A stretch of 64,000 nucleotides of DNA from a virus (taxonomy: Duplodnaviria > Caudoviricetes): positions 32,001-96,000 of the IMG/VR virus record IMGVR_UViG_3300031867_000003, one strand, 5' to 3'. Shown here piece by piece: positions 3,065 through 26,468 of this stretch. A program made the translations under genes and the position numbers. The notes below the pieces were generated by a model that saw only the letters and a program-made list of their open reading frames with translations, did not search any database and was not told the DNA's origin. Every line of letters begins with the position of its first letter. Position 1 is the first letter of the stretch.

Positions 3065-4324
3065 ATGAGCGATTATAAGCCTGTATATTTAGTGATGGTA
3101 TCATCTAACAATAACAATAAATACTATCGTATGCTGGCGAATACCGATGGCGAAACTTTTACGGTTCAGTATGGCAGAGTAGGGGCGAGTTCTCAAACGA
3201 GGACTTACCCTCTGCGAGACTGGGATAAGAAATACAACGAGAAAATCCGCAAAGGTTACGTAGACCAAACACATCTGATGGAAGATTTAATATCGGTGGT
3301 GGATACGAAGCCGGATACTCCGGAGTATAAAGCAATCGAGAACGCTGCTATAGCAGAGATTGTTGACCGCTTAATGAGTATGGCTAAAAAGAAGGTCCAG
3401 CAGAATTACCGTGTGGAATCAAATCAAGTTACTCAGGCGATGGTTGACGAAGCGCAGAAAATAATTGATAGCCTTACAACTATAACAACGATTAAAGCGT
3501 TTAATGAGGAATTGATGAAACTGTTTACCACAATTCCGCGAAAGATGGGTAATGTTAATGATTATCTGGCTAGGTCAACTGATGATTTTGCCCGTATTAT
3601 TAAAGACGAACAAGATCTGCTTGATGTTATGCGAGGCCAGGTAATCACTCACTCGGCTATGGATGATAAACAGACGGCTTGGGATGATAGCGTTGAAAAT
3701 TCTCCGAAGAATGACAAGACCATTCTTGAGGCTATGGGTATTGTGATGAAACCCGTTAACGATGCCGAAGTTGAAGTCATTAAAGATATGTTGGGCGACT
3801 GCAAGGATAAATTCTATCAAGCGTGGAGAGTAACCAATTTGGCTACTCAAAAACGATTTGATGATTTTGTAGATAAAGAAAATATTAAAGATGTTAGGTT
3901 GTTTTGGCATGGGAGCAGAAATGAGAACTGGTGGTCAATTATTAATAATGGTTTGATGATTAGACCTACAAATGCTGTGATTACAGGAAAATTATACGGA
4001 TACGGTATTTACTTCGCCCCTAAAGCAAGAAAATCATTAGGGTATACAAGTTTAAGTGGCAGCTATTGGGCGAGAGGTGATTCATCATCTGGATTTATGG
4101 CATTAATGGAAGTTGCATATGGAGAACCATATGATGTTTATTCTTTTGACAGCAAATACAATTCATTAACTTATGATGAACTTCAAAAGTTTAAAAGAGG
4201 GGCTAATGCATTACATGCTCATGCCGGAGCCGACATGGGTTATGGCAATCCATTAAGAAATGATGAAGTAATAGTATATAAGGAAGATCAAGTAAGTATT
4301 AAATATTTAGTTGAATTGAGGTGA
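3065..4324 (+). CDS. PARP-family ADP-ribosyltransferase (WGR-like, helical regulatory and catalytic domains)
   Basis: NNNKYY...YGRVG WGR-like domain. H-Y-E triad in WHGSR, YGIYFA and NDEVIVY. Confidence 0.88.
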   Translation: MSDYKPVYLVMVSSNNNNKYYRMLANTDGETFTVQYGRVGASSQTRTYPLRDWDKKYNEKIRKGYVDQTHLMEDLISVVDTKPDTPEYKAIENAAIAEIVDRLMSMAKKKVQQNYRVESNQVTQAMVDEAQKIIDSLTTITTIKAFNEELMKLFTTIPRKMGNVNDYLARSTDDFARIIKDEQDLLDVMRGQVITHSAMDDKQTAWDDSVENSPKNDKTILEAMGIVMKPVNDAEVEVIKDMLGDCKDKFYQAWRVTNLATQKRFDDFVDKENIKDVRLFWHGSRNENWWSIINNGLMIRPTNAVITGKLYGYGIYFAPKARKSLGYTSLSGSYWARGDSSSGFMALMEVAYGEPYDVYSFDSKYNSLTYDELQKFKRGANALHAHAGADMGYGNPLRNDEVIVYKEDQVSIKYLVELR

Positions 4325-5055: not shown

Positions 5056-5426
5056 AGGTTTACGTAATAGAAAAAGGAGTCTATTCCGATCGCCATATAA
5101 TCGGCGTTGTTGAGTCCGAAGAAGAAGCAAAAAACATTGTCGAGGCTATTAAATGCGGAGATTATAATGACAATTCAATTAGTTATGAGGAGTATGACAC
5201 TCGCCAGTTTTTAGATAAGCGATTAAGATATAATGTCACTAGATATAGCGACGGAGACTGGCAAGTGAAATATGATGATTATGACTTGTATAAGGAATTT
5301 AAAGAGAATATTTGTGTTTATTCAGATTACTACGTCATATATGCCAATTCTCCCGATCAGGCTATCAAAATCGCCCAGGACATGAGAGCGGAAGAGTTAG
5401 CTCGTAGGAATGGACTAACAGAATAA
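5052..5426 (+). CDS. hypothetical phage protein
   Basis: 124-aa ORF with an ATGA overlap. Confidence 0.7.
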   Translation: MKVYVIEKGVYSDRHIIGVVESEEEAKNIVEAIKCGDYNDNSISYEEYDTRQFLDKRLRYNVTRYSDGDWQVKYDDYDLYKEFKENICVYSDYYVIYANSPDQAIKIAQDMRAEELARRNGLTE

Positions 5427-5566: not shown

Positions 5567-5830
5567 AGTCAACATAAGCACCAACTAAATATTTGAGGAA
5601 GGAGTTCATTATGAATTATCGGACATGTCCAATCTGTGGAAGAGCAATGATCCTGTGCAGTACATACGCACACGGTCAAGTACCTAAAAGGATTTTTAAA
5701 TGTAGCTGCGGTTTCCGGACAGATGTGGATATGTCCGGTTTGTCGTATAGCGACTTTCTTAATCGATATCACTTTGGTGATAGCAACACAAATAACCATA
5801 ACAAACCAATTAATTATTAAAGGAGCAATA

Positions 5831-6682
5831 ATGATAACAAACAAAATTAGACTGATTGAGCTATTCGGCGGCGTGGGATGCCAGTCGATAGCATTGAGGG
5901 ATTTGGCTATTGCTAATGGTCTTAATCCGGATGACGTATTTGAACACTATAAATTGGTCGAGTTCGATAAATTTCCGGTCAAAAGCTATAATGCGATTCA
6001 TGGTACGGATTTTGTACCGATGGATATTCAAGAAATTCATGGCGAAGACATAGATGTTGAGGAACCGGACAAATATACGGCAATCTGGACGTACTCGTTC
6101 CCATGTCAAGATCTTTCAGTGGCTGGAAAACAAGCTGGGATGGACAGAGACAGCGGAACTCGTAGTGGATTACTTTGGCAAGTAGAACGTTTATTAAACG
6201 AAGTACATAATCTTCCGAATATCCTTATCATGGAGAACGTCACACAAGTCCATAGCAAAAAGAATCTTCATAACTTTGAAGAATGGTGCCAGTTCCTCGA
6301 ATCCAAAGGATACTACAACTATTGGCAAGACCTTGAAGCCAGTGAGTATGGTGTACCCCAGCACCGCAACCGTTGTTTTATGGTAAGTACCCTCGAAGAA
6401 ATCAACTTCGAATTTCCGCAGCCGATTCCGCTCCATGAGGTTATGAAAGACCGACTCGACCCAGTTGTAGATGAGAAGTTCTATATCAACAATGAAAAAG
6501 CGGATGCTCTCATTCAGCAGCTTATTGCCGACGGTAAACTTGATGAGGAGACAATCCTCGAAGCTGTTGATTTATCAGTTAATAACCCAGACACTCTTGA
6601 TATTGCGAATTGTGTCAGTGCGAGAACAGACCGTGGAATCAGCAACCGCAGATCTGAGGGATCGGGAGTTGTGCAATGTTGA
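5831..6682 (+). CDS. C5 DNA methyltransferase, N-terminal catalytic part (motifs I-VIII plus one TRD-like module)
   Basis: ELFGGVG (I), SFPCQDLS (IV), MENV (VI), PQHRNRCF (VIII). Motifs IX and X are absent. Confidence 0.92.
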   Translation: MITNKIRLIELFGGVGCQSIALRDLAIANGLNPDDVFEHYKLVEFDKFPVKSYNAIHGTDFVPMDIQEIHGEDIDVEEPDKYTAIWTYSFPCQDLSVAGKQAGMDRDSGTRSGLLWQVERLLNEVHNLPNILIMENVTQVHSKKNLHNFEEWCQFLESKGYYNYWQDLEASEYGVPQHRNRCFMVSTLEEINFEFPQPIPLHEVMKDRLDPVVDEKFYINNEKADALIQQLIADGKLDEETILEAVDLSVNNPDTLDIANCVSARTDRGISNRRSEGSGVVQC

Positions 6683-6871
6683 AGAATGAACTAACCTCAA
6701 CAATGCCAATTGTTCTCGGCAGAGTACTTCCTTTGACTTCTGATAAAATACACCAGAATCAGGAAGTATACTATGAGGGGGGTCATCTGTACGATTAAAG
6801 CTACACACTACAAAGACCCTCCAAAAGTATTGGTTAAGGAGATAGTAACAAATGAAGAAAGCAACAATTGA
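6676..6871 (+). CDS. TRD-like mini-gene 1, frameshifted at G6 (6777-6782)
   Basis: MLKNE...HQNQEVYYEG, then VICTIKATHYKDPPKVLVKE in the +1 frame. Confidence 0.7.
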
Positions 6872-7035
6872 CCAACTCGGCTGGCTAGAGCGCGGTAACG
6901 GCAAAACTCAATCTAATGTTGTATACTCTGTGGGGGGTCGCGCCGTGTGTTTGCGCCGGCTGTGGAGTAAAATATTGGATTTACATAATAGATAGGGTAA
7001 AAAGCGATGAAGAAACAAATCACGGCAATTTTTAG
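6852..7035 (+). CDS. TRD-like mini-gene 2, frameshifted at G6 (6932-6937)
   Basis: MKKATIDQLGW...QSNVVYSVG, then VAPCVCAGCGVKYWIYII in the +1 frame. Ends at TAG 7035, or at TAA 7053 under code 15. Confidence 0.7.
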
Positions 7036-7183
7036 AAACATGGGGAGTACTAACGAGGATAGAATACCATCATATAGATTAACCGATGTAGCTGAAGCTA
7101 TATTAGCCAGGGATTATAAAGGATGGGGAAATTATTTTGCTAATGGAGTTATTGAAATTGAAAAACTTGAACCAACCGATTAA
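7007..7183 (+). CDS. TRD-like mini-gene 3
   Basis: TDVAEAILARDYKGWGNYFANGVIE, similar to the module ending the N-terminal gene (DIANCVSARTDRG...SGVV). Confidence 0.7.
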   Translation: MKKQITAIFRNMGSTNEDRIPSYRLTDVAEAILARDYKGWGNYFANGVIEIEKLEPTD

Positions 7184-7346
7184 AGTCGGATTTATCGATT
7201 ACTCCGGTTCGGGCAAAGCCCACCAGTCCAATACTGTATACTCGGCGAATGGCATTTGCCCATGTATTTGTAGCTATGCCAATCGGTATGGCGGAGTACA
7301 ATCCAATATATTAGTACGTGAGAATAATTATGGAAAAAATCAGTAG
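7158..7346 (+). CDS. TRD-like mini-gene 4
   Basis: GGAG plus TTG start. HQSNTVYSANGICPCI...NILVRE. Confidence 0.7.
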   Translation: MKNLNQPIKVGFIDYSGSGKAHQSNTVYSANGICPCICSYANRYGGVQSNILVRENNYGKNQ

Positions 7347-7500
7347 TATTTTTATCGGCAATATTTACGGTCACAAAGATGCCTATGCCGGCGCAGTGTT
7401 TGGAGTGCAAGGGCTGTGTCCGGCAATCAAGGCGAACTCCGGCGGTAATACTCAGCCGATAATAGTGGTGAAAGACAATGGTAACAAATCAGTTAATTAG
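7330..7500 (+). CDS. TRD-like mini-gene 5
   Basis: IGNIY...AGAVFGVQGLCPAIKANSGGNTQPIIVV. Confidence 0.72.
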   Translation: MEKISSIFIGNIYGHKDAYAGAVFGVQGLCPAIKANSGGNTQPIIVVKDNGNKSVN

Positions 7501-7678
7501 ATTAGGTAATATATACGGTTTCACAGGCGGATCGTTTGCCGGCAATGTATATTCTCATCGCGGATTATGTCCTGCGATTAACACTGCCGGCGGTGGCAAC
7601 CGTGAACCGATAGTGATTATTAAGGAGATAAATTATAAAGCTAATCAAACAAATAATATGCGCGTCGAGGGGACGTAA
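7478..7678 (+). CDS. TRD-like mini-gene 6
   Basis: LGNIY...AGNVYSHRGLCPAINTAGGGNREPIVII. Confidence 0.72.
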   Translation: MVTNQLIRLGNIYGFTGGSFAGNVYSHRGLCPAINTAGGGNREPIVIIKEINYKANQTNNMRVEGT

Positions 7679-7820
7679 CCCGAATAATCCGAGTGACCGC
7701 AGTAGAACCGGTGGCGGTATTCTTGTGCAACGTCTGGAGCTTGCTGAGGATGAACTCGCACATACGATTACCTCAGTAGCTAAGGATAATTGGGTGTTCG
7801 AAATATATGGAAAAGAATGA
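7635..7820 (+). CDS. TRD-like mini-gene 7 (apparent ATA start; missing from the ORF track)
   Basis: AAGGAG then ATA. CASRGRNPNNPSDR...QRLE...AHTITSVAKDNWVFE. Confidence 0.65.
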   Translation: MKLIKQIICASRGRNPNNPSDRSRTGGGILVQRLELAEDELAHTITSVAKDNWVFEIYGKE

Positions 7821-8016
7821 AAAGCTATTAGATTCTCGCTGTCTTGTGCCAAAACGTACCGAGTATGGTAAGCGTATACGCAAAGATTATGAGGCACATC
7901 GATTATATGAGCATCGTTCCAACATGATGATGTTACATCCTCGCACAGACGGATGCATAAATACATTAACAACAATACTAAAGGATAACTACATCCTGGA
8001 AATATATGAGAGATAG
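7807..8016 (+). CDS. TRD-like mini-gene 8
   Basis: RTEYGKRIRKDYE...PRTDGCINTLTTILKDNYILE. Confidence 0.72.
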   Translation: MEKNEKLLDSRCLVPKRTEYGKRIRKDYEAHRLYEHRSNMMMLHPRTDGCINTLTTILKDNYILEIYER

Positions 8017-8212
8017 TAATAAAGATAATGATAACAAACTAGTGCCGATTTGTCTCGGCGGAATCGGCGAAATTAATTATGGCAAGCAATATCGCCTCGG
8101 TAACCGTGTTTATGACAGCAGAAGTGTTGCCATGGCACACTGTGCTAATCCTGTCGGTAATCTCGGCGGTTATACATATTTATATTTAGTAGTAGAGGCT
8201 AATAATGAGTAA
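8006..8212 (+). CDS. TRD-like mini-gene 9
   Basis: LGGIGE...GNRVYDSRSVAMAH...GGYTYLYLV. Confidence 0.7.
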   Translation: MRDSNKDNDNKLVPICLGGIGEINYGKQYRLGNRVYDSRSVAMAHCANPVGNLGGYTYLYLVVEANNE

Positions 8213-8630
8213 ACCACTTTTTAAACTTGACAATCATTTATTATATTTTGATTATATATTGGAATACTTTGACTTATTTCATCCGATGTTTTACGTGTGC
8301 AGGGACGATAATGATGAACGTTTTTTGGTTTTGAGGATGGATTTATGTGAGAAGGAATCATACTTGATTACCGAAATCAGCCTAAACGATTTAAATAATA
8401 TGCTATTAGGGAATATCACTATAAGATCGGCATTTCTTGATCGATCATCATTCTACGAGGTTCACTGTTTAACGGAGAACTACTCAGATGACGTAGTAAC
8501 AAAACGTGAAATATCAGAATTCCCTATAGAATACTTACCGGGTAAAGATTATAAATATGTTCTATATGATGACGAGCATAGAGAGTATCAAAAACGAATT
8601 GCAAAAGAATTGGAGAAAACCAATAGTTAA
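8205..8630 (+). CDS. unrelated hypothetical protein inserted in the TRD array
   Basis: 141-aa acidic ORF with no TRD-module motif. Confidence 0.7.
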   Translation: MSKPLFKLDNHLLYFDYILEYFDLFHPMFYVCRDDNDERFLVLRMDLCEKESYLITEISLNDLNNMLLGNITIRSAFLDRSSFYEVHCLTENYSDDVVTKREISEFPIEYLPGKDYKYVLYDDEHREYQKRIAKELEKTNS

Positions 8631-8632
8631 TT

Positions 8633-8854
8633 ATGCAAGAAATTGGACTAATATTTTTAGGAGGTCTCGAGAGTAGCCTGTGGCTAGATAACGGCAAGAG
8701 ACTATCTCGGAATTTCCGCCAAGGATACAGAGTATATGATAGCCGAGGATTAGCTAATACACTACCGAGTAGTAGCATTGGCGGTCTCGGCGGTAACAGT
8801 GGATTATATTTGGTAATTGAGGTAGATAATGAGTTCAGTAATAGCGGAAGATGA
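8633..8854 (+). CDS. TRD-like mini-gene 10
   Basis: LGGLE...QGYRVYDSRGLANTL...GGNSGLYLV. Confidence 0.72.
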   Translation: MQEIGLIFLGGLESSLWLDNGKRLSRNFRQGYRVYDSRGLANTLPSSSIGGLGGNSGLYLVIEVDNEFSNSGR

Positions 8855-9055
8855 CCCTTTCAATATTATTAAAAATAACCGGTATGGGGGGGGAGATATA
8901 AGATGTTTTACGAAAAACATGGATATATTCCCGGAATTTTTCACCCATATAGTTTACAAGACACTTCGCAGATAGCTTGTACACTGTGTTGTGATTGCGG
9001 AGCGCCGGGACATGCAAGTAATATGATGGTGATAACTAAGGAAAGGATTGATTAA
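8829..9055 (+). CDS. TRD-like mini-gene 11, frameshifted at G8 (8886-8893)
   Basis: MSSV...NRYGG, then RYKMFYEKHGYIPGIFHPY...IACTLCCDCG...MMVI in a shifted frame. G6 or G9 restores the frame. Confidence 0.68.
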
Positions 9056-9057
9056 AT

Positions 9058-9348
9058 ATGAGTAGTGATAATATGACAGAAACAAAATACCGTTACAGAA
9101 TTCGCAAGCTTACGCCAAAGTGTTGTTGGCGTCTGATGGATATAGCCGGTCCAAATGATGAATACTTTAATCGGGCTGAACAAGTCAATTCGAATTCACA
9201 ATTGTACAAGCAGGCCGGCAACGGCATCGTCCGCTCAGTGCTGATGGGCATTTTCTCGCAGCTTGACATCGCCGGCATCCGCAAGTGGAATGACATGAGC
9301 GATGAAGAAATTAACCGTATGTTACATTATCAAGAAATTACCTCTTGA
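9058..9348 (+). CDS. C5 DNA methyltransferase, C-terminal part (motifs IX-X)
   Basis: RIRKLTPKCCWRLM (IX) and SQLYKQAGNGIV (X). Confidence 0.9.
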   Translation: MSSDNMTETKYRYRIRKLTPKCCWRLMDIAGPNDEYFNRAEQVNSNSQLYKQAGNGIVRSVLMGIFSQLDIAGIRKWNDMSDEEINRMLHYQEITS

Positions 9349-11061: not shown

Positions 11062-12408
11062 ATGATTACGAGAAAAATTCAGTTATATCCTATTGGAGAT
11101 GAAAAAGAAGTTGATAGAGTATACACATATTTAAGAGATAGCATTAAATCGCAGAATAAAGCGATGAATCAATATATGTCTAATCTGTATGTGGAAGAAT
11201 TATTAAATGCGTCCAAAGAAGATCGAAAAGAATTAAATGCATTATATACTAGAATTCCGACCAGTAAAAAAGGAAGCGCTTATAGTCTGGATTTGGAATT
11301 CCAAAAAGGACAGATGCTTGGTTATATAACCAGAGCAATAGATTCAGATTTTAAAAAATCACTAAAAGACGGGTTGATGTATGGGAAAGTATCTCTCCCG
11401 GTTTACTCAAATAGCAATCCGTTATTAGTTCATGTGAATTATTGCAATTTGCGTAGTAAGGTTCAAAAACAAACAGGCACTAACACTGGTATTTACCACA
11501 ACTACGAATCTCATCAGGAGTTTTTATCTCATTTGTATAAAACAGATATAGAAATATATCTTCAGTTCTGCAATAATATTTTGTTTAAATTAAATCTCGG
11601 TGATAGCCTCAGAAAATCTCGCGAAATCCGTTCAGTAATACAGAAAATATTTGAGGAAGAATATATTATCCACGGTTCGCAGATCCAGTTAAAGAAGAGG
11701 AAAACTGGCAAGGGCGAAGATATATTCTTACTGCTATCAATCGAAACTCCGGTTGTTAAGCATGAACTTGATGAAAATATTGTTGTCGGCGTAGATCTCG
11801 GCGTGGCAAATCCGGCAGTATGTGCAGTAAACATTAACGGCAATTATAAATTCCTGGGCGACGGAGAAACATTCCTTCATTATAAACAAAAATCCAAAGC
11901 CGAAAGACGCAGACTTCAGAGAGCTCTAAAGTATACAAATGGCGGTCACGGAAGAACCAAAAAACTGAAAGCACTCGATAGATTGAAAGAACGTGAGAGC
12001 AACTTTACTACAACGTATTCTCATAAGCTCTCAAAAGATGTTGTAGATTTTGCCATTGAACAGCATGCCAAATACATCAACCTCGAGGATTTAACCGGAA
12101 TAGATGACAAAGATGGTAAAAAACTTCTCGATTGTTGGAAATACTACGAACTTCAGCAGTTTATTATCTACAAAGCTACTCATCATGGCATAGTAGTCCG
12201 CTTTATTAATCCAAAATATACATCTCAGACTTGTTCCAAGTGCGGAAATCATGCCGAGGGGCAGCGTGACGGTCATAGTTTTACATGTAAAGATTGTGGC
12301 GAAGAGCTTGATGCCGATCTTAATGCAGCCAGAAACATTGCTATGTCAACAAATTTTGTTGAAAGAGGCAAGAAGAAAAAGAAAAAGAATAAAACCGATA
12401 ATAAATAA
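11062..12408 (+). CDS. cas12f: Cas12f-like (TnpB-derived, type V-F/V-U3-like) RNA-guided nuclease
   Basis: 448 aa. RuvC GVDLG, NLEDL and DADLNAARNIA. Zn ribbon CSKC/CKDC and GGHGRTKKL motif. Directly follows the array. Confidence 0.82.
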   Translation: MITRKIQLYPIGDEKEVDRVYTYLRDSIKSQNKAMNQYMSNLYVEELLNASKEDRKELNALYTRIPTSKKGSAYSLDLEFQKGQMLGYITRAIDSDFKKSLKDGLMYGKVSLPVYSNSNPLLVHVNYCNLRSKVQKQTGTNTGIYHNYESHQEFLSHLYKTDIEIYLQFCNNILFKLNLGDSLRKSREIRSVIQKIFEEEYIIHGSQIQLKKRKTGKGEDIFLLLSIETPVVKHELDENIVVGVDLGVANPAVCAVNINGNYKFLGDGETFLHYKQKSKAERRRLQRALKYTNGGHGRTKKLKALDRLKERESNFTTTYSHKLSKDVVDFAIEQHAKYINLEDLTGIDDKDGKKLLDCWKYYELQQFIIYKATHHGIVVRFINPKYTSQTCSKCGNHAEGQRDGHSFTCKDCGEELDADLNAARNIAMSTNFVERGKKKKKKNKTDNK

Positions 12409-22180: not shown

Positions 22181-22806
22181 TTTTGATAGAATTCGCCAGA
22201 TGACGGAGGAAGAATTTGCCGATTGGCTCGAGGATTTTGCCGAAGCATATGTGGAATTTTGGCTGCTAGGCACATGTAAGAGTGTTAGAGAAGACGACAA
22301 AAGAATTCAGTTGGGTATGTTAAAATCAGAATATATTGGAGATAAGATGTTTGAATTCTGAGAAGGAGAAAATAATGGTTAAAGTATTTACAACAAATAG
22401 CAATGGTAAAATTGAATTTACCAAAGATGAACTTGAGAAGCTACTCAACGAAGTATGGCGAGATGGATATGATTCTAATAAATCGCTTTGGTGGCCATCG
22501 TCGCCGACTACTCCTGTGGGTAGACTTAGCCCAGGCGAAGAATCGATGCAGCTTACGTGCTGAATCGGTGGTGATGCGTAATGAATAACTATAGTGATGA
22601 AGAAATAAAATCAATACTTGTATGTCTTAAAACTCTTGCGCAAATGTCTACGGCACTCGCCAGACCTGTTTGTAGTCAATGCGAACTTTATGATTATAAT
22701 GAGATGTCCGATGAAGGATATTGCGCAGCTAAGGATTACGAACCGATTAAACTATATCGAAAACATCGCCCTGATTGGTGCCCGAGATTAAGGGGGGTAA
22801 TGACTG

Positions 22807-25904: not shown

Positions 25905-26468
25905 ATGGTAATAGATTTAGAAAACTGTAATAACAAGTATGGAATTATTTACACGGATCCGCCATGGCAACAATCAAAAGGCGGTAAAAAATCTGTAAGA
26001 CCAAATTCTAGTGGGGGGGAGTTATCGTACCCAACAATGAGTATAGAGGACATCTCTTCACTGCATGAAAATGTTTTTAATAAATTAACAGAGAAAAAGC
26101 ATGATGTCTTTATGTGGACAATTGACAAATATTTAATAGATACAGAACAGTTTATGAAAAAACTTGGGTACACAAGACATGCTAGGATTATATGGGATAA
26201 GATTACTGGTCAAGCTACAGCATTTACTGTCAGATTTACACACGAATATTTGTTATGGTTTTATAAAAAAGGGAATATCTTAATGCCAGCAGATAGTACT
26301 CGCGGAAAATATTCAGATGTAATAAGAGAACAAGTAAAACGGCATTCGCAAAAACCGCAATGTGCATATGAAATGCTAGAAGATATGTTTCCAGATACTA
26401 AGAAACTAGAATTATTTGCGAGAAACAAACGACCTGGCTGGGACTGCTGGGGCAATGAAGTAGCATAA
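25905..26468 (+). CDS. MT-A70 family adenine methyltransferase
   Basis: DPPW, HSQKP and LELFAR...GWDCWGNE motifs. In-frame G7 at 26013-26019. Confidence 0.9.
   Translation: MVIDLENCNNKYGIIYTDPPWQQSKGGKKSVRPNSSGGELSYPTMSIEDISSLHENVFNKLTEKKHDVFMWTIDKYLIDTEQFMKKLGYTRHARIIWDKITGQATAFTVRFTHEYLLWFYKKGNILMPADSTRGKYSDVIREQVKRHSQKPQCAYEMLEDMFPDTKKLELFARNKRPGWDCWGNEVA

Follow-up and report, generated by a model that had tools for sequence, protein, structure and literature searches.

The methyltransferase locus and its guanine tracts

The 64,000-nt stretch studied here (the window) comprises bases 32001-96000 of the 202,175-bp virus record IMGVR_UViG_3300031867_000003, which is rated complete. Between positions 5831 and 9348 it encodes a C5 cytosine methyltransferase in pieces, namely an N-terminal catalytic half (N-half), about 11 small open reading frames (ORFs), an unrelated ORF of 141 amino acids (aa) and a C-terminal half (C-half), with three of the small ORFs being interrupted at runs of guanine (G6 denoting a run of six). 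In the N-half, the motifs FGGVG, FPCQ, ENV and QHRNR can be read by eye, identifying it as the large domain of a C5 methyltransferase, and in near-identical contigs this protein is likewise called at 283 aa. The C-half alone aligns with positions 263-322 of PF00145 at 19.3 bits, slightly below the cut-off of 22 bits; in the alignment of C-halves, RKLTP..RLM and QAGNGIV are invariant, as expected for motifs IX and X. Among GenBank phages, a single weak match to the N-half was obtained.

The small ORFs have a length of 55-75 aa, overlap each other in changing frames and each possess their own start and stop codons. Their products show either the motif VYxxxG-xCP-A/T-I...GG..P.I.E or SRGRNP...QRLE...T-I/L-T..KDN, corresponding to the variable target-recognition region of C5 methylases, and about 11 such modules follow in tandem within 6683-9057, between the pieces carrying motif VIII and motif IX. 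Assignment of the mini-proteins as target-recognition domains (TRDs) is thus a prediction from motif likeness and from placement, the same module types being fused between motifs VIII and IX in the more distant relatives L010, L007 and L064. In the window, core and TRDs do not form one polypeptide, as they do in enzymes of the SPR/phi3T type. A reassigned stop codon fusing the mini-ORFs was ruled out, with stops being a mixture of TAA, TAG and TGA and consecutive ORFs overlapping in different frames. The split layout, in which every module has a start codon and a ribosome-binding site, is found again in related loci (L001, L006, L007, L175 and L185), the N-half of L001 being 87% identical and followed by four modules.

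In a reading of the window made from the sequence alone (the sequence-only reading), three of these mini-genes, designated m1, m2 and m11, had been proposed to be frameshifted by poly-G tracts. The sequence and a homopolymer scan confirm the three tracts exactly as described (Table 1), and each of them marks the exact point where a TRD mini-gene switches frame. In m1, the motif stops at ...EVYYEGG in the first ORF and picks up as VICTIKATHYKDPPKVLV in the second one (+1 shift), whereas in m2 it stops at ...NVVYSVGG and resumes as VAPCVCAGCGVKYW (+1 shift) and in m11 at ...IIKNNRYGGG, resuming as RYKMFYEKHGY (-1 shift). When rebuilding the modules in silico, the tract lengths proposed to restore the frames indeed gave complete products (listed as ON lengths in Table 1), while any other length resulted in a truncated product in all three modules. 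Hence, at m1, m2 and m11 a tract within the reading frame sets the frame by its length, as is characteristic of contingency loci. Within the TRD motif (VYxxGG before xxC/PT-I/L), both G6 tracts map to one and the same Gly-Gly, and in each of the broken modules the G run is the only lesion, without a second stop or indel.

In the complete genome, eight runs of at least six G but no corresponding C run are found. Three of the eight are located within the 2,375-bp array (binomial P = 8.7e-5), among them the longest G run of the genome, the G8 of m11. Glycine is encoded least often by GGG (13% of Gly codons), and of the 110 Gly-Gly dipeptides found in ORFs of at least 200 aa, not one uses GGG-GGG; accordingly, the runs are not a by-product of codon usage. 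The remaining G6-G7 runs of the window are either in frame or intergenic. One of the in-frame runs, a G7 at 26013-26019 coding for SSGGE, lies in a second DNA methyltransferase gene (25905-26468, 187 aa) with a DPPW motif and MT-A70-like by eye; when counting it, methyltransferase genes hold four of the eight runs. A function of the tracts as internal ribosome-binding sites was also considered and rejected, as it would fit m11 (G8, then AGATATAAG, then ATG at 8903) but not m1 and m2. A search for tetra- and pentanucleotide repeats in the methylase locus of the window found none.

Table 1. Pieces of the C5 methyltransferase locus, positions referring to the window; ON and OFF, module predicted in frame and out of frame, respectively.
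Feature	Position	Strand	Remarks
N-terminal catalytic half	5831..6682	+	283 aa, motifs I-VIII; Pfam PF00145 positions 2-209, E 1e-39
TRD mini-gene m1, broken	6676..6871	+	ORF 6676-6798 + ORF 6773-6871
G6 tract in m1	6777..6782	+	OFF; ON lengths G5 (64 aa) or G8 (65 aa)
TRD mini-gene m2, broken	6852..7035	+	ORF 6852-6995 + ORF 6916-7035
G6 tract in m2	6932..6937	+	OFF; ON lengths G5 (60 aa) or G8 (61 aa)
TRD mini-gene m3, intact	7007..7183	+	ARDYKG type; orthologues in L006, L001, L175
TRD mini-gene m4, intact	7137..7346	+	VYSANGICPCI...GG
TRD mini-gene m5, intact	7330..7500	+	98% aa identity to L175, dN/dS 0.04
TRD mini-gene m6, intact	7478..7678	+	partner chain in complex model
TRD mini-gene m7	7635..7820	+	SRGRNP...QRLE...TITSV.KDN type; 92-95% aa identity to L175/L001, dN/dS 0.06
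TRD mini-gene m8, intact	7807..8016	+	
TRD mini-gene m9, intact	8006..8212	+	
141-aa ORF lodged in TRD array	8205..8630	+	same place in L175 (96% aa identity, dN/dS 0.06) and L183; no Pfam match
TRD mini-gene m10, intact	8633..8854	+	93-97% aa identity to L174/L179, dN/dS 0.04-0.08
TRD mini-gene m11, broken	8829..9055	+	ORF 8829-8975 + frame of ORF 8903-9055
G8 tract in m11	8886..8893	+	OFF; ON lengths G6 (74 aa) or G9 (75 aa)
C-terminal half	9058..9348	+	96 aa, motifs IX (RKLTP..RLM) and X (QAGNGIV)

At the start of m7 (7632-7637), ATA preceded by an in-frame ATT is found where L001 has an ATG start; a good AAGGAG is present upstream, and the next standard start is a GTG at 7725 within the module. 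This may be a knock-down of the start codon in a fourth module. In L001 itself, the N-half frame is interrupted just after FPCQ (6283-6315), resulting in ORFs 6001-6282 and 6316-6858 while tblastn reads through; this interruption reflects either a genuine loss of function or a fault of the assembly. Gene calling on the near-identical ENA contig ERZ27256863 treated TAG as glutamine (window 6993-6995 and 2089), giving an m2a product of 52 aa ending in NRQGKKR (P0023) and an ERCC4 protein of 177 instead of 120 aa; also in this reading no TRD mini-genes are fused. Directly upstream of the methylase locus, a 419-aa protein with PARP catalytic domain and WGR domain (3065-4324) is encoded beside a Macro-domain protein and the ERCC4 nuclease, and downstream at 11062-12408 a 448-aa Cas12f/TnpB-like protein (OrfB_IS605 and Cas12f1-like TNB domain).

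Tract lengths, selection and possible assembly of the modules

For comparing the same sites in close relatives, a protein collection was searched with the truncated products, leading to clusters of at least 90% identity that also hold full-length forms, and tract lengths were compared within 300-nt flanks 86-94% identical to the window. At all three sites, a G run is present in these relatives, at lengths other than in the window. At the m1 site, where the window has an OFF G6, L181 and L182 carry an ON G8 (65 aa) and L175-L178 an OFF G9. The m2 site, likewise OFF at G6 in the window, shows OFF G7 in L175, L176 and L178 and ON G8 in L181 and L182 (67 aa in L182). For m11, the series comprises the OFF G8 of the window, ON G6 in L185 (74 aa), OFF G7 in L179 and ON G9 in L183 and L184 (75 aa), in addition to an interrupted GT-G7 in L174 that is ON. 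The m11 ON alleles of 74-75 aa correspond to P0007-P0014, and P0014, represented by two independent assemblies, is letter-for-letter equal to the m11 product predicted for G9 in the window. Intact one-frame orthologues of m1 occur in L006 (58 aa), L180 (57 aa, P0002) and L181/L182 (65 aa, P0006); L006 and L180, which are more distant, have no run at these codons and modules intact in one frame.

Thus, predicted ON lengths are found in nature at all three sites (G8 in m1, G8 in m2, G6 and G9 in m11), and, as in established contingency loci, tract length varies between close relatives with conserved flanks while ON and OFF alleles are both present. As judged from the reading frames, all three switchable modules are OFF in the window and ON in sister phages. 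This series of tract lengths lends support to the earlier interpretation of slipped-strand switches acting on individual TRDs, and an absence of G runs from homologues, named in the sequence-only reading as grounds for refutation, was not observed in these relatives.

Ratios of nonsynonymous to synonymous substitution rates (dN/dS) were determined with each half of the broken modules read in its own frame. The comparison of m1 plus m2 with L175 gave 0.17 over 118 codons, whereas the same DNA in wrong frames as control resulted in 1.08 and 1.23. For m11 compared with L174 and L179 a value of 0.07 was obtained, and for the intact modules m3, m5, m6 and m7 together 0.13. These substitution patterns indicate purifying selection acting on the broken modules, which are not dead.

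The pattern extends to about 150 loci with related N-half gathered from viral, metagenome and genome collections, the genome-collection matches being mainly contigs of metagenome-assembled genomes (MAGs) with the labels Lachnospiraceae, Clostridia, Treponema or Bacteroidales. Members of the family are also carried by prophages of Lachnospiraceae or Treponema. In the region from N-half to C-half, amounting to 125 kb in total, 143 runs of at least six G (118 of at least seven, the longest being G12) as well as 2 C runs were counted, compared with 51 (20 of at least seven) and 14, respectively, in 1,268 kb of flanks. For runs of at least G7, the TRD region thus shows an enrichment of about 60-fold, and the coding strand carries the G in all runs but two. 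They fall on a small number of Gly-Gly positions conserved in the TRD types, with orthologous tracts ranging from G6 to G9, and 72 of the 143 keep the frame whereas 71 break it. Even with 240 nt of 100% identical flank, tract lengths can differ, as found for L034 (G9) versus L092 (G7) and for L035 (G9) versus L085 and L088 (G8).

The densest run clusters were seen on two MAG contigs labelled Candidatus Fimenecus and Bacteroidales, with 9 G6-G9 runs in L161 (5711-7157) and 7 in L120 (1899-3091) within 1.3-1.5 kb of TRD region. Other simple repeats also occur in the family, i.e., (GACA)4-10 and (ACTT)4-5 in the N-half of L064, L065, L066, L056, L060, L080 and L047 (at 5712-5751 and 5220-5237) and (ACAGC)8 in L010 (6884-6923). 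Since the copy numbers of these tetra- and pentanucleotide repeats vary between contigs, they represent additional frame-setting repeats besides the G runs.

In the window, N-half, C-half and the eight other modules are intact. A three-chain model of N-half, C-half and m6 scored 0.89, versus 0.02 for the best of three controls, although likeness to solved single-chain C5 methyltransferases may explain this pass; among solved complexes, 58 of 80 reach the mark applied, and among mismatched pairs 2 of 110. Contacts agreed to at least 86% across the runs, and the predicted local distance difference test score (pLDDT) of the partner was at least 71. In the model, m6 sits between the two halves, where it touches motif VIII on the N-half side (residues 171-258) and motif IX on the C-half side (residues 9-27), in support of free TRDs possibly assembling with the two halves. 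The earlier idea that TRDs in separate genes can be switched off without killing the enzyme is in line with this model as well as with the intact halves and other modules and with the conserved split layout in L001, L006, L007 and L175.

Probable slippage at contingency tracts and competing explanations

Taken together, the three G runs are quite probably hypermutable contingency tracts on Gly-Gly codons of free-standing TRD mini-genes belonging to a multi-subunit, multispecific C5 methyltransferase. Polymerase slippage during replication of the phage DNA would gain or lose a G, giving rise to the observed length differences, and the changed tract length would move one TRD subunit of 60-75 aa into or out of frame. 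Because the TRDs are separate chains, such a shift would leave both halves and the eight remaining TRD genes unaffected. Switching of this kind would be reversible within one population and would change methylation specificity, so that the phage population would hold mixed methylation repertoires. A methylated site would guard against a Type II enzyme but invite methyl-dependent (Type IV) restriction, and because of this double effect of each methylation the mixed repertoire would act as a hedge. By analogy with the agt gene of phage T2 discussed below, such hedging between restriction systems is the likely pay-off.

Nevertheless, the frame breaks might simply reflect decay, with G runs being mutational hot spots in three unneeded TRD genes and the length differences resulting from neutral drift without any adaptive switching. 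Such a view could draw on the OFF state of all three tract-bearing modules in the window and of m1 and m2 in the L175 lineage as well, on the shortness of the G6 tracts and on the gain and loss of modules (four in L001 versus about 11 here). We consider it quite unlikely, as dN/dS in both halves of broken modules (0.07-0.17) resembles that of intact ones and is far from the wrong-frame controls (about 1.1-1.2), no broken module has acquired a second lesion, and sister phages possess ON alleles, one of them 100% identical to the repaired product of the window. Moreover, the runs are made of the rarest Gly codon, and a strand-specific 60-fold enrichment across the family would be hard to obtain without selection for them.

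Purifying selection on m1 and m2 despite their being out of frame in two lineages could also be accounted for by recoding, i.e., transcriptional slippage or ribosomal frameshifting at the tracts, so that OFF alleles still give some full-length TRD and DNA length is of minor relevance. Glycyl-tRNA can re-pair on G runs in any frame and G runs resemble Shine-Dalgarno sequences; in line with this, the G6 runs at 22792 and 25476 double as ribosome-binding sites in this genome. However, the shift needed varies by site (+1 in m1 and m2, -1 in m11) and by allele (G6 versus G7 in m2), hence no fixed programmed shift is conserved. RNA polymerase slippage, in turn, is efficient mainly on about nine or more A or T, two of the tracts are only G6, and DNA tract lengths do vary between relatives. 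Recoding as the main explanation is therefore very unlikely, while expression-level recoding could act alongside slippage of the DNA.

Indel errors classically fall in homopolymers, and the tracts could accordingly be in frame in reality and misrepresented by sequencing or assembly. Such errors alter a run by a base but cannot make runs, which are enriched over about 150 independent assemblies, and short-read consensus seldom miscalls runs of G6-G7 length. Contig names of the relatives follow the style of SPAdes and MEGAHIT (NODE_..._cov_, k141_), suggesting short-read assembly. Furthermore, two other assemblies of a near-identical phage give equal ORF lengths for m1 and m2, and the window's further G6-G7 runs do not break any frame, whereas among relatives 15 of 25 G6 and 14 of 40 G7 runs are out of frame. 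An artefact is thus hardly credible as a source of the three frame breaks.

Several observations weigh against contingency tracts acting on free TRDs. The near-identical assemblies (ENA ERZ27256863 and Logan SRR9036512) share the m1 and m2 ORF lengths of the window, with no heterogeneity at the consensus level, and m1 and m2 are OFF in two of three sampled lineages, which relaxed use would fit too. With their short length, the G6 tracts are probably slow switches, fast-switching G runs in well-studied bacteria being of 8 or more. In addition, searching the mini-ORFs singly against Pfam (E<=10) gave nothing relevant, and a sequence search of the PDB with m7 gave no match.

The sequence-only reading had likened the system to a phasevarion, a label that fits loosely. 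The term denotes a regulon under the control of a phase-variable methylase, and restriction hedging is the more likely pay-off here. With a lytic-type 202-kb phage as carrier, one would not by default expect a role in controlling a regulon.

A more far-reaching proposal is that of a combinatorial methylome switchboard, in which a constitutive two-piece core would be served by a library of free TRD subunits, each gated one being toggled independently by its own poly-G tract, so that one burst would comprise varied protective patterns as a bet-hedge between Type II and Type IV restriction, a strategy that phages and prophages of a large family from gut and rumen would have in common. In our judgment, the case for this proposal is evenly balanced. 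If true, three switches would give eight states in the window, and relatives such as L161 have up to nine tracts.

Relation to known systems and biological significance

Multispecific C5 methyltransferases were reportedly described by Trautner et al. in 1996 (EMBO J 15:1434, a reference cited in PMC12707154) for Bacillus phages (M.SPRI, M.Phi3TI, M.Rho11sI, M.H2I and M.SPBetaI). Like the locus studied here, these enzymes are phage C5 methyltransferases with one catalytic core and several short modular TRDs between motifs VIII and IX, each TRD being expected to set one target, with anti-restriction as presumed role. In contrast to their TRDs in one polypeptide, about 11 separate overlapping mini-genes are present here and the core is split into N- and C-half. 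We know of no simple-sequence switch described for the Bacillus phage enzymes. Naturally split C5 methyltransferases of two subunits are M.AquI and M.EcoHK31I, and as in these, a catalytic fold would be formed in the window's enzyme from separately translated chains divided near the variable region, as deduced here from genes and model. M.AquI and M.EcoHK31I, however, combine two chains for one specificity, whereas the enzyme predicted here has two chains for the core and, in addition, many alternative TRD chains, with G runs gating three of these.

In bacteria, phase-variable Type III mod and Type I hsd genes, including phasevarions (PMC7383803), and the poly-G-containing Type IIG gene cj0031 of Campylobacter (PMC4889913) offer the closest parallels in mechanism, with a homopolymer or short repeat in a methyltransferase or specificity gene, length changes shifting the frame and alleles differing between close strains. 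Their outcome is a heritable, reversible change in methylation, for which the parallel in the phage would be expected. The bacterial loci encode cellular adenine methyltransferases, in which the whole gene is ON or OFF or HsdS is truncated, and studies have dealt with their consequences for the expression of host genes. In the present case, a phage carries the locus, the enzyme is a C5 methylase, and each switch would hit one specificity subunit, allowing for combinatorial states instead of an enzyme that is ON or OFF as a whole.

Among phages, the adenine run in agt of T2 and T4 is a contingency locus in a DNA-modification gene, and the T2 homopolymer trades protection from one restriction system for exposure to another (bioRxiv 10.1101/2025.10.21.683753). 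Receptor-binding genes of Fletchervirus with poly-G tracts are cited in the same work, while no C5 methyltransferase case is listed there. In these systems, too, a homopolymer lies in a phage gene and reversible frameshifts create subpopulations, and T2 agt further resembles the present case in modifying phage DNA. They differ in encoding a glucosyltransferase or tail proteins under a single gene-level switch without modular specificity subunits. A literature search did not find any paper on poly-G switches in TRDs of phage C5 methylases. Phage contingency loci as such are already known from T2/T4 and from tail genes of Campylobacter phages, and phase-variable methylases are classic in bacteria.

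Phase-variable methyltransferases have thus been known as a bacterial device, and multispecific C5 methylases from a few Bacillus phages, in which they serve as a fixed means of anti-restriction. The locus described here points to a third form, with specificity modules as separate small genes, some of which bear a private mutational switch. The window stands out by the extreme split, with eleven free TRD genes, three of them gated and all three presently predicted OFF. If the mechanism holds, it would explain the many 'frameshifted' methylase genes of gut phages in assemblies, where pipelines call pseudogenes or overlook the mini-genes, and methylomes of metagenomic phages may be mixtures. The free modules would lend themselves as natural plug-in TRD subunits where the specificity of cytosine methylation is to be engineered, and the phages would provide a simple, testable system for hedging against methylation-sensitive and methylation-dependent defences.

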